Shown: in pieces, positions 12,332 through 15,306 of the stretch
Numbering within the stretch: the stretch's first letter is position 1
Layout: each line of letters begins with the position of its first letter
Source of the DNA: a virus
Reading direction: 5' to 3' (one strand)
Virus record (IMG/VR): IMGVR_UViG_3300027541_000218
Coordinates: 1 to 64,000 of that record
DNA length: 64,000 nucleotides
The notes under the pieces: generated by a model
What the model saw: only the letters and a program-made list of their open reading frames with translations
The model's database searches: none
Told to the model about the DNA's origin: nothing
Position numbers and translations under genes: made by a program

Positions 12332-13857
12332 AACTATTGGCAATAGGTATGCAACATCACGATCATAATGCAGCATATTTTGATGGAGAAAAACTACACT
12401 ATCATAAATTTGAAAGAACAAAACAAATTAAACACTTTGAATATGAAAATAGATGGGAAATATTTAAAGATGTTCAAGAACTATGGAACTTTAAATTAGA
12501 TGAAATAGATGATATTGTTATTGATTATGACTATGCTACCTTTTTTCAAAACATAGACCCAGAGTTTGATTTAACAAGACCAGAAGTGTTATTTTATAGA
12601 ATACCAAAAAAATACAATCCTTTTGAATCTTTTGGTATAAAAAATGCATGGCATATAAGCCATCATTATTCTCACGCCTTATCCACATGGATGCTAGAAG
12701 ATAAGAATAATTCTCCAAGAGTTAGAGTTGTTATAGATGGCATGGGAAATAATAAAACATGTACAATTTTTGAAAATAATGTTGTTATAAAGAGTGTATA
12801 TGAGGCTGACGCTGGATCAATTGGGTTTCATATGAACAATGCTGCTATGTGGCTTGGTGTAAACAAAGTGAGTTCGCTTGACAATGCTGGCAAAGTTATG
12901 GGCTTACAGTCATACGGAAGGGTTCATGACCAATACTTAAAAGAAATTAATGAGTTTGGAATTGATAATGCTAATGCCATATTTGACTTGACTAGATGGA
13001 ATAACTACATGAAAGATCCATTGTTAACTAATCTTACCCCTCTTGACTGGATTAGAACTGTGCATGAAAGAGTTGGGGATCTTTTAGTAGAACTATTTAG
13101 TAAGTATATTAATAAAGAAGAAAGTGTTTCGTACTCTGGAGGAGTAGCACAAAATGTTGTATGGAATACAAAACTAATTCATAATTTTCCTAATATAATT
13201 ATTCCACCACATTCTAGTGATGAAGGATGTAGTTTAGGTGCAATTGAATGGTTAAGAAAATATCACGATCTTCCTGAGTTTAAACTTGAAAACTTTCCAT
13301 ATTGTCAAAATGATTATGCTCCAAGCACAGAGCCTACAGATGAAACAATTAAGTATGCAGCCAAAATGTTGGCAGAAAATAAGATTGTAGGTTGGTATCA
13401 GGGACATGGGGAAGTTGGTCCTAGAGCGTTGGGTCATAGGTCTATATTAATGAATCCTGCTATACCGCTTGGAAAAGAAATTATTAATTCTGTTAAAAAA
13501 CGAGAAAACTATAGACCATTTGGAGCATCTGTTTTATCTGAGCATGTACTAGATTATTTTAAATATGATATAAAAGATCCACACATGCTATTTACTAATG
13601 ACTTTAAGGTTGATACGTTCCCAGCAATTACTCACGTTGATGGCACTTGTAGAACTCAAACGGTAGAAAATGATGGATCTGCATACAGAAAACTAATTGA
13701 AGAATTTTATAAGTTGACTGGACATGCATTAATTCTGAATACTAGTTTAAACATTAATGGAAAACCAATTGCAGGATATCCTGAGAATGCTATTGACTTG
13801 TTTGAGTTTTCTATGATAGACTGTATGATAATTGGAAATACAATATTAAATAAATAA
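12328..13857 (+). CDS. carbamoyltransferase (NodU/CmcH/TobZ family)
   Basis: HHDHNAA, HHYSHA, IDGMG, GKVMGL..YG, SGGVAQN, GPRALGHRS, KKRE.YRPF, HVDGT.R.Q, LNTSLN. Confidence 0.92.
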   Translation: MKLLAIGMQHHDHNAAYFDGEKLHYHKFERTKQIKHFEYENRWEIFKDVQELWNFKLDEIDDIVIDYDYATFFQNIDPEFDLTRPEVLFYRIPKKYNPFESFGIKNAWHISHHYSHALSTWMLEDKNNSPRVRVVIDGMGNNKTCTIFENNVVIKSVYEADAGSIGFHMNNAAMWLGVNKVSSLDNAGKVMGLQSYGRVHDQYLKEINEFGIDNANAIFDLTRWNNYMKDPLLTNLTPLDWIRTVHERVGDLLVELFSKYINKEESVSYSGGVAQNVVWNTKLIHNFPNIIIPPHSSDEGCSLGAIEWLRKYHDLPEFKLENFPYCQNDYAPSTEPTDETIKYAAKMLAENKIVGWYQGHGEVGPRALGHRSILMNPAIPLGKEIINSVKKRENYRPFGASVLSEHVLDYFKYDIKDPHMLFTNDFKVDTFPAITHVDGTCRTQTVENDGSAYRKLIEEFYKLTGHALILNTSLNINGKPIAGYPENAIDLFEFSMIDCMIIGNTILNK

Positions 13858-13933
13858 TGGTCTGTAGTTCAGTTGGCAGAACAAGGCACTGTTAATGCCT
13901 GGGTCGTAGGTTCGAGTCCTACCAGACCAGCCA
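13858..13933 (+). tRNA. tRNA-Asn(GTT)
   Basis: TGGTCTG/CAGACCA acceptor, AGGCA-CTGTTAA-TGCCT anticodon arm, GTTCGAGT T-loop, encoded CCA. Confidence 0.95.
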
Positions 13934-13934
13934 A

Positions 13935-14008
13935 GCGAATATTGCATAGTGGTAGTGCGTAACCTTGCCAAGGTTAATGTGCGAGTTCGATTCTCGCTAT
14001 TCGCTCCA
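13935..14008 (+). tRNA. tRNA-Gly(GCC)
   Basis: GCGAATA/TATTCGC acceptor, TTGCCAA loop, encoded CCA. Confidence 0.93.
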
Positions 14009-14009
14009 A

Positions 14010-14083
14010 GGTCCGTTAGTTCAGTTGGTTAGAACGCCACCCTGTCACGGTGGAGGTCGTGAGTTCAAGTCTCATACGGATCG
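14010..14083 (+). tRNA. tRNA-Asp(GTC)
   Basis: GGTCCGT/ACGGATC acceptor, CCACC-CTGTCAC-GGTGG; CCA not encoded. Confidence 0.92.
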
Positions 14084-14087
14084 CTAA

Positions 14088-14159
14088 GTCTCCATCGTCT
14101 AGTGGTTAGGACAACACCCTTTCACGGTGTAAACGAGAGTTCAATTCTCTCTGGAGATA
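14088..14159 (+). tRNA. tRNA-Glu(TTC)
   Basis: GTCTCCA/TGGAGAT acceptor, ACACC-CTTTCAC-GGTGT. Confidence 0.92.
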
Positions 14160-14165
14160 CTCGAA

Positions 14166-14305
14166 ATAACATCTGAACAATGTTATGGAGATCGTTATTA
14201 CTGAAACTGAGTTCGTGGGCGCATCATACGAAGGTGTTCAGACCGAAGGAGATTGCTCTGCTACCCCACTAGGTAATAACAGCCAGCGGAGACTTTGTGG
14301 CTGGC
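14166..14305 (+). ncRNA. unidentified pseudoknotted RNA inside the tRNA cluster
   Basis: ATAACAT/ATGTTAT hairpin whose loop CTGAACA complements TGTTCAG at 14235; GTTATTAC/GTAATAAC; TTCGTG/TACGAA; GCCAGC/GCTGGC. Confidence 0.6.
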
Positions 14306-14309
14306 ATTT

Positions 14310-14381
14310 GCCTCCTTAACTCAGGGGTAGAGTACCCGCCTTGTAAGCGGGTTGTCGTAGGTTCAAATCCTACAGGAGGCT
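14310..14381 (+). tRNA. tRNA-Thr(TGT)
   Basis: GCCTCCT/AGGAGGC acceptor, CCCGC-CTTGTAA-GCGGG, GTTCAAAT T-loop. Confidence 0.93.
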
Positions 14382-14382
14382 C

Positions 14383-15306
14383 GTGGCACACTTATCAATT
14401 AAAGAATTGTCTAAGCGCAATAACTTTCAGACCTTTGTCTATAGAATAGGCATTGGTCAAGGGTTTTATCTTGTTAATACAGATATACTTGTTAAGTTAA
14501 ATAAATCTATTTTAGAAAATATTTTATCAGTTGACGATTTAAATAATTATAAAGTTGGTAGATCAATACAATTACCAACTGAAACTAATGATTTAGTTCC
14601 ATTAAGTATGCTTTATAAAGACTCAGATTTTTCTACTAGAACACAAAATACAACAGCAAAACAAGATGAACAGATATTTAATATTGCATGTTTAATGGAT
14701 AGTATTAAAAATGAAAGTGGCTTAGAATATGTGCCAATTAAAATTATAGATAATATATATAATGTAAGGTCAATAAAATCTTTAGAAGATAAATCCAAGG
14801 CTGATTTTTGTTTCATAGACTTAGATGGTAAAGAAGTAGGTTTTGTATCACATAAAGATGGTATAAGCCCTAGAGACTTCCAACAGTGGTCTGGTACATC
14901 AAAAAGATTTCAAGAAGAAATATTTTTACATCCTGAGACTCAAGATTTTATTTCTGTTTTGAAAGAAAATTTTAATGACAGTCTTCCACCAGCGTCAACA
15001 GTAGCAAGAAAAATATCAGATCAAAGACTAAAACATCTTGCCGTATTTGGTAATGATTTTGGTCAAGTGCTTGGTAGAAACAATGTTGAGGCTGTAATGC
15101 AAGGAGATTTACAACTTATATTTAAGAATGAATACTGTGAATTGGTTGGATCTCACTATACTATTAAGAATGGAGAGATACCTGTTTACGGATATGAGCC
15201 AGTGCTTATGGCAGTACACAAAAGAGATAGAAGCGATCATTGGATTAAAAACTGTAGGCTTACTATAAATCCATTAGGTACTAGAACTATTAAGTTGTTC
15301 ATATAG
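14383..15306 (+). CDS. hypothetical protein, possible PD-(D/E)XK-type endonuclease
   Basis: KADFCF...VSHKDG...FQQWSG resembles a restriction-like catalytic motif; very AT-rich. Confidence 0.5.
   Translation: MAHLSIKELSKRNNFQTFVYRIGIGQGFYLVNTDILVKLNKSILENILSVDDLNNYKVGRSIQLPTETNDLVPLSMLYKDSDFSTRTQNTTAKQDEQIFNIACLMDSIKNESGLEYVPIKIIDNIYNVRSIKSLEDKSKADFCFIDLDGKEVGFVSHKDGISPRDFQQWSGTSKRFQEEIFLHPETQDFISVLKENFNDSLPPASTVARKISDQRLKHLAVFGNDFGQVLGRNNVEAVMQGDLQLIFKNEYCELVGSHYTIKNGEIPVYGYEPVLMAVHKRDRSDHWIKNCRLTINPLGTRTIKLFI

Follow-up and report, generated by a model that had tools for sequence, protein, structure and literature searches.

The tRNA array and its gap

This analysis concerned a 64,000-nt stretch of viral DNA (IMG/VR record IMGVR_UViG_3300027541_000218, positions 1 to 64,000; hereafter the window) and, within it, an array of tRNA genes with one oversized gap. 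The window phage is uncultured and from freshwater, has a GC content of 35%, and its DnaE-type polymerase shares 54% identity with the Streptomyces phage enzymes. An identity as a T4-like cyanophage or a pelagiphage was considered and dropped, as the replication genes are of the DnaE type and closest to those of Streptomyces phages. Five co-directional tRNA genes, on which ARAGORN and Rfam agree, lie on the plus strand: tRNA-Asn (13858-13933), tRNA-Gly (13935-14008), tRNA-Asp (14010-14084), tRNA-Glu(UUC) (14088-14160; Rfam tRNA model, 64.6 bits), and tRNA-Thr(UGU) (14310-14382; Rfam, 69.6 bits). The first four are separated by spacers of 1, 1, and 3 nt, and the gap between tRNA-Glu and tRNA-Thr measures 149 nt (14161-14309). 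A first-pass annotation, made from the sequence alone, had singled out this gap as one of 150 nt among spacers of 1-4 nt, and its observation was confirmed.

A 3' CCA is encoded by tRNA-Asn (13931-13933) and tRNA-Gly (14006-14008), and is missing from tRNA-Asp, tRNA-Glu (the 5' neighbour of the gap), and tRNA-Thr (its 3' neighbour). Since only some of the tRNAs encode CCA, two modes of 3'-end maturation are mixed in the array. The array is wedged in an operon of glycan-modifying genes: a carbamoyltransferase gene stops at 13857, abutting tRNA-Asn, and an ORF of 307 aa (14383-15306, plus strand; phrog_13937, no Pfam match) begins 1 nt past tRNA-Thr. A scan for promoters and terminators around the window array gave nothing above the level of shuffled sequences.

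A family of related elements

Exact-word scans of IMG/VR with three core words, together with nhmmer, yielded 28 further copies of the sequence that fills the gap. A covariance model (R1) was built from a MAFFT alignment of 25 sequences (A1), followed by a single pattern scan of metagenome contigs and another of prokaryote contigs. R1 gave 66 matches including the window (65 further), with scores of 112-187 bits; these represent 56 distinct sequences, which were brought together in a larger, model-fitted alignment (A2). A search for homologues in phage tRNA arrays had been proposed in the first-pass annotation, and its outcome was this family with a strongly covarying fold. The window element occupies the whole of the gap (14161-14309, plus strand) and is a full-length member, matching R1 over model positions 1-167 with 153.2 bits (E = 7e-31). 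It is 149 nt long, and its relatives are 149-173 nt long.

The copies come from IMG/VR phage contigs and from lake and river metagenomes, that is, from uncultured and mostly freshwater sources, and we know of no cultured carrier. The element had no blastn match among 50,697 phage records and 72,556 plasmids, sets that may lack records of the window's own lineage, and literature searches found no description of this RNA. The scan of prokaryote genomes gave a single match, on a 10.7-kb MAG contig labelled Methylococcus, which is probably a mis-binned phage contig, and the label was not taken as indicating a host. One copy is present in each of five carrier genomes; four of these are complete genomes of 89-117 kb, two of which have terminal repeats. 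Of 16 long relatives whose DnaE is 76-87% identical to that of the window phage, 15 are without the element, among them three complete genomes that still have 4-9 tRNAs; because of this absence the element is considered accessory and dispensable. Conversely, carriers G003-G005 have no such DnaE at all, and the module therefore crosses phage lineages. A co-occurring protein partner was sought in the flanks and none stood out, the only shared genes being structural and lysis genes common to the lineage (hsp20, S8 protease, CHAP).

The position of the element relative to tRNA genes is highly regular. The upstream tRNA ends 0-1 nt from the element in 51 of the 56 distinct copies, and the downstream tRNA starts at -1 to +2 nt in 47 of the 53 copies that could be evaluated, while the identity of these neighbours varies, with ten tRNA species found upstream and eleven downstream. 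A divergent clade (L134, L135, and L056) has no upstream tRNA. Copies without an upstream tRNA are instead preceded by a hairpin with a U-run and by an extended -10-like box, the end of which is about 7 nt from the element. Upstream of divergent copies there is a further structured and conserved stretch with the sequence CGUCGUUAAAAAC, at L135:1341-1500 (+), L056:10384-10543 (-), and L133:1652-1811 (-). On L135 and L056 a GC hairpin with a U-run and a TGTGCTA(G/C)AGT box come next, and the two may represent a terminator and then a promoter, with the CGUCGUUAAAAAC stretch as a candidate leader element.

Several other inter-tRNA gaps were seen in the arrays of relatives. A gap of 211-214 nt between tRNA-Glu and tRNA-Trp is conserved at L017:691-904 (-), L027:1119-1332 (-), L137:12485-12695 (+), L157:10979-11192 (+), and L163:777-990 (-). 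It contains GGAG, a 6-nt spacer, and an ATG followed by about 27 codons, and the changes between its two sequence types are mostly synonymous or conservative; judging by this pattern, it looks like a small gene within the array and not a structured RNA. Three pairs of related gaps have no Rfam match and may be further array-borne RNAs: one of about 162 nt at L008:443-604 (-) and L021:4235-4397 (+), one of about 280 nt at L008:1424-1706 (-) and L092:3508-3783 (+), and one of about 155 nt at L017:978-1132 (-) and L157:10751-10905 (+). A marginal match to tRNA-Sec (47.8 bits, with a cut-off of 47) at L018:1998-2083 (+), in an array of 24 tRNAs, is probably a tRNA with a long variable arm.

Evidence for the fold

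Taken alone, the window sequence gives little indication of a special structure. The minimum free energy of the gap is -37.3 kcal/mol, with a z-score of -0.54 against dinucleotide shuffles, and since this single-sequence fold is no better than chance, the reality of the fold rests on the comparison of homologues. The fold was derived from RNAalifold on A1 and from explicit pair counts, with thermodynamics left out as evidence. In A1, 98.6% of cells are paired and 20 of the 43 pairs show double changes; none of 500 shuffles reached any of the covariation measures, and sliding the partners by 1-3 columns, as a control, lowered pairing to 31-42%. In A2 the 43 pairs are 99.2% paired, and double changes are seen in 24 of them. 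Pairs of the G.U type are frequent at four positions in A2, and the fold is therefore specific to the plus (tRNA) strand.

All of the helices named in the first-pass annotation, a 7-bp hairpin, a long-range stem, an inner hairpin, and a 3' GC hairpin, are present in the sequence. Its description of the element as a pseudoknotted, structured RNA is likewise borne out by the strong covariation, which includes one compensatory change in the loop-loop contact. This contact is a helix of 6 bp between CUGAAC (14173-14178) and GUUCAG (14236-14241), complementary in every copy, in which one C-G position has become U-A in two copies and U-G in one. Shuffling the rest of the element produces the hexamer GUUCAG by chance in 3.4% of cases. 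The pairing had initially been given as seven bases, with a complement at 14235-14241; that complement is present in the sequence and six of its pairs are retained, but the seventh is not, as U14235 pairs with A14242 instead and closes hairpin P4. The closing pair covaries in its own right (U-A in 26, G-C in 13, C-G in 11, and U-G in 6). For the window, the consensus nested structure has an energy of -32.6 kcal/mol, to which the kissing duplex adds -7.3 kcal/mol.

Anatomy of the RNA

The element begins with a single-stranded, A-rich 5' leader (14161-14165), which reads UCGAA in the window and UCAAAA or UCAGAA in most copies of both alignments. Hairpin P1 (14166-14186) follows, with 7 bp between 14166-14172 and 14180-14186 and the loop CUGAACA (14173-14179); in the pair counts six of its seven pairs show double changes and 98.7% of cells are paired, and in isolation it is a weak hairpin (-2.4 kcal/mol). 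The linker to the next helix, GGAGAUC (14187-14193), is kept in most copies, though not in those of the divergent clade. P2 is the long-range stem, its 5' strand at 14194-14202 pairing with 14272-14280; it consists of 14194-14201/14273-14280 and an additional U.G pair, 14202/14272. The eight P2 pairs in the model are 100% paired, and four of them have double changes. Next comes an internal loop, J2/3 (14203-14214), in which GAA is invariant and the remainder variable.

The inner stem is made up of P3 (14215-14219 with 14265-14269) and P3a (14221-14222 with 14260-14261), their 5' strands together spanning 14215-14222. Double changes occur in four of the five P3 pairs, P3a is almost invariant, and the stem closes a three-way junction that bears hairpins P4 and P5. 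The junction strand leading to P4, J3a/4 (14223-14232), is a 10-nt sequence, AUCAUACGAA, that is invariant in all 25 rows of A1. P4 itself (14233-14244) has 3 bp (14233-14235/14242-14244) around the 6-nt loop GUUCAG (14236-14241). It is followed at 14245-14259 by J4/5 (GAA, or GAU in many copies) and P5, a nearly invariant hairpin with 14248-14251 paired to 14256-14259 and the loop AUUG. P5 is 99.6% paired, with one G.U to A-U change, and because of its near-invariance it gives little covariation evidence. The 3' strands of P3a, P3, and P2 (14260-14280) include an invariant CUAGG. Together, J3a/4, P4, J4/5, P5, and the start of the 3' strands form an almost invariant core of about 42 nt, which was identical across the first five copies.

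The 3' hairpin P6 (14282-14305) pairs 14282-14287 with 14300-14305 and has two inner pairs. In the pair counts, five of the six outer pairs and both inner pairs show double changes, and P6 alone has a z-score of -2.6. Its length is variable, from 24 nt in the window up to some 48 nt elsewhere in the family, in a form with a side branch. The element ends with a 4-nt tail, AUUU (14306-14309), that extends to the presumed RNase P cut making the 5' end of tRNA-Thr.

Searches against known families and small genes

The first-pass annotation had called the RNA unidentified and had proposed an Rfam search, in which none of the 4227 models of Rfam 15 matched within 14161-14309 at gathering score, nor at E ≤ 10 on a 301-nt stretch; the element of the L017 homologue likewise had no match. 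Because there was no Rfam match at E ≤ 10, the glycine riboswitch, tRNA-like elements, and the catalogued ribozymes are excluded. The words reminiscent of a glycine riboswitch that had been pointed out in the sequence do belong to the invariant core, but the glycine riboswitch model (RF00504) has no match at E ≤ 10, and the downstream gene is always a tRNA. A tRNA, tRNA-like RNA, or tmRNA was also rejected, with nothing found by ARAGORN or RF00005 and no GUUCRANYC-type T loop with a 5-bp stem. The model of manA RNA (RF01745; gathering score, 55.2 bits) never matched the element, and readings of the core as a hammerhead, HDV, or k-turn motif did not fit on inspection. Homology to the T4 RNAs rnaC and rnaD was rejected as well, since an R1 search of the T4 tRNA region, with filters off, matched neither of them.

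It is doubtful in the extreme that the gap holds a small protein gene, or two decayed tRNAs with chance pairings. The window does contain an ATG-initiated ORF of 44 codons (14185-14319), and in homologues one frame of the core is free of stops over 27-56 codons. However, element lengths are spread evenly over the residues modulo 3 (19, 19, and 18), neither a start codon nor a frame is conserved, the ATG in other copies stands in another frame relative to the core, and in several copies the core frame is closed 2-17 nt upstream. Substitutions in the stems come in pairs, whereas no codon position of the core varies, and the ORF would extend 10 nt into tRNA-Thr. As for decayed tRNAs, 149 nt is about the length of two tRNAs, but neither ARAGORN nor the Rfam tRNA model detects any within the gap, and both ideas were rejected.

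Expression

The window is found again in DNA and RNA libraries from rivers. Across four studies, RNA-library contigs span the element and its flanks, which is a weak hint of transcription, since contigs reveal nothing of ends or levels and may derive from carried-over DNA. No joints of the kind expected of a circular or spliced form were seen in metatranscriptome contigs, which are a poor test of this. One RNA-library contig of 1713 nt (X16 record 8) matches 13935-14318 exactly and has other tRNA-like sequence upstream of tRNA-Gly; it seems to come from a co-occurring strain with a rearranged array that keeps the element.

A structured RNA in a tRNA slot

As judged from sequence comparison, the element is a real, conserved, and well-supported RNA family that has not been catalogued; its fold and family are new, and its niche is a known one. 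The explanation that best fits the data, with a probability of roughly 70%, is that a small, structured non-coding RNA is encoded in the gap, in what amounts to a tRNA slot, and that it is excised by tRNA processing and acts as a free-standing molecule. The RNA would be co-transcribed with the tRNAs of the array. Its 3' end would be produced by the RNase P cut at the 5' end of the next tRNA, and its 5' end by 3' processing of the preceding tRNA, either by RNase Z or by an RNase E-type cut in the A-rich leader. In the divergent clade the 5' end would instead be the start of transcription, with the element as the first gene of the transcript. A stand-alone RNA freed in this manner had been suggested in the first-pass annotation, and the flush spacing to tRNAs on both sides agrees with it; we infer the release itself, and its mechanism, from the anatomy of the array and the T4 precedent. 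Once excised, the RNA would adopt a compact shape, with a stack of P1, the kissing helix, and P4 (about 17 bp) lying beside a stack of P2, P3, and P3a (about 15 bp plus loops), and its invariant junction strands would make up a site for specific binding or for activity. A host or phage protein or RNA is the most likely partner, and the function would then be accessory and host-specific, like that of the accompanying tRNAs. A trans target of the invariant junction strand was sought within the window, and only chance-level matches were found.

Other functional readings start from the same fold. The P1 and P4 loops complement each other and are not self-complementary, which allows head-to-tail chains or rings, so that the P1 loop of one molecule could pair with the P4 loop of another and give dimers, rings, or cages. 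The observed covariation fits an intramolecular and an intermolecular contact alike, and an attempt to separate the two by length compensation between P1 and P2 was not robust. The possibility stays alive because manA RNA, which lies one tRNA upstream of the element in L017, L018, L031, L137, and L163, forms cages through intermolecular kissing loops according to a preprint (10.64898/2026.07.01.735769). On the other hand, the estimated helix lengths suit an intramolecular kiss (about 17 bp against about 15 bp plus loops, with a 7-nt linker), the element has only one pair of complementary loops while manA uses several interfaces, and manA is absent from the record of the window and from three of the five carrier genomes. 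Self-assembly is, on balance, unlikely. We are still more sceptical of a new self-cleaving ribozyme, which would cut at or near its own boundary and so mature a neighbouring tRNA independently of host nucleases. Covarying stems around some 45 invariant junction and loop bases, along with a pseudoknot-type contact, are compatible with such an activity, as is the start of the element 0-1 nt past the upstream tRNA in arrays such as that of the window, where three of the five tRNAs do not encode CCA. Host RNase P and RNase Z, however, already account for both ends, and the divergent clade has no upstream tRNA to process. By inspection, the order of helices is unlike the HDV double pseudoknot or any hammerhead permutation, and no model of a known self-cleaving ribozyme (hammerhead, HDV, twister, pistol, hatchet, theta, twister-sister, hairpin, or other) matched the window element or the L017 homologue at E ≤ 10. 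The ribozyme that the first-pass annotation had offered as an option thus lacks a match to any known model, and what speaks for it is the pattern of conservation.

The three-way junction, the distal loop-loop contact, and the invariant junction bases also resemble many aptamers, and a cis-acting sensor, either riboswitch-like or an attenuator, might control transcription or processing of the downstream tRNAs. The glycine-riboswitch-like words would be in line with such a role, and manA was itself first proposed to be a riboswitch (PMC2864571). Against this, there is no expression platform: between P6 and the tRNA lie 4 nt, and a U-run is absent. Every downstream gene is a tRNA, of variable identity, and no riboswitch model matched at E ≤ 10. 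A sensor is accordingly given very little weight, and a free-standing RNA excised from the array is the preferred reading.

A bolder reading, in which the element is either a further short phage RNA with head-to-tail, RNA-only assembly into rings or cages like those of manA RNA or a new class of ribozyme acting on tRNA precursors, is in our view a minority prospect. In either case, phage tRNA arrays would be expression cassettes for hidden functional RNAs and not for tRNAs only. Such arrays are usually annotated as tRNAs and 'spacers', and here a spacer is the gene for a sophisticated RNA. The core of the element is more conserved than the surrounding tRNA order; the element itself shifts its position in the array and crosses at least two phage lineages, and it shows the kind of conservation seen in ribozymes and specific binders. 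With a tested alignment, a fold, and a covariance model now in place for the family (A1, A2, and R1), it is ready for synthesis and assay. Phage non-coding RNAs may have roles in takeover of the host or in counter-defence. The finding is not textbook-changing alone, because the niche has precedents.

Comparison with known systems

The T4 RNAs rnaC (species 1, 139 nt) and rnaD (species 2, 119 nt) are non-tRNA RNAs of similar size to the element; both are products of tRNA-type processing for which no function is known. Like the element, they are co-directional with a phage tRNA cluster and abut a tRNA (in T4, behind tRNA-Arg). There is, however, no similarity in sequence or structure, the best R1 match in the 7-kb T4 region (8.7 bits) lying elsewhere; rnaC has a tRNA-like T arm, which the element does not, and the phage lineages are unrelated, the element being found in DnaE-type freshwater phages. 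Given the similar placement and the lack of an R1 match, rnaC and rnaD are considered positional analogues only.

Aquatic phage and metagenome DNA are the main known sources of manA RNA (RF01745; PMC2864571), which has been described as forming 8-, 10-, and 60-mers through intermolecular kissing loops (preprint 10.64898/2026.07.01.735769). Like the element, it folds into several helices, with a hairpin at the 5' end and a pseudoknot, and at about 180-190 nt it is comparable in size; the two occur together, both flush between tRNAs, in the same arrays. These manA copies, scoring 64-66 bits, are at L017:1453-1634 (-), L018:90-271 (+), L031:1033-1213 (-), L137:11768-11949 (+), and L163:1612-1793 (-). 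Their flush position between tRNAs argues that manA is a stand-alone RNA in these arrays and not a 5'-UTR switch. The two families are nevertheless different, as helix order and conserved bases differ and manA does not match the element at E ≤ 10.

The HDV-like theta ribozymes found beside phage tRNA genes in gut phages, for which a role in the maturation of tRNA ends has been proposed (PMC10879173), resemble the element in being small structured RNAs directly beside phage tRNA genes. They differ in having the nested double-pseudoknot fold of HDV and proven self-scission; the element has another topology and no match to the HDV family. GOLLD and ROOL are phage or prophage RNAs that often lie near tRNAs, have loop-loop contacts, and form RNA-only multimers (PMC12286853), but they are several hundred nt long, and neither has an Rfam match at the element. 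Taken together with T4 rnaC and rnaD, manA, GOLLD, ROOL, and the theta ribozymes, the present family strengthens the case that tRNA clusters serve as a general launch pad for the non-coding RNAs of phages.
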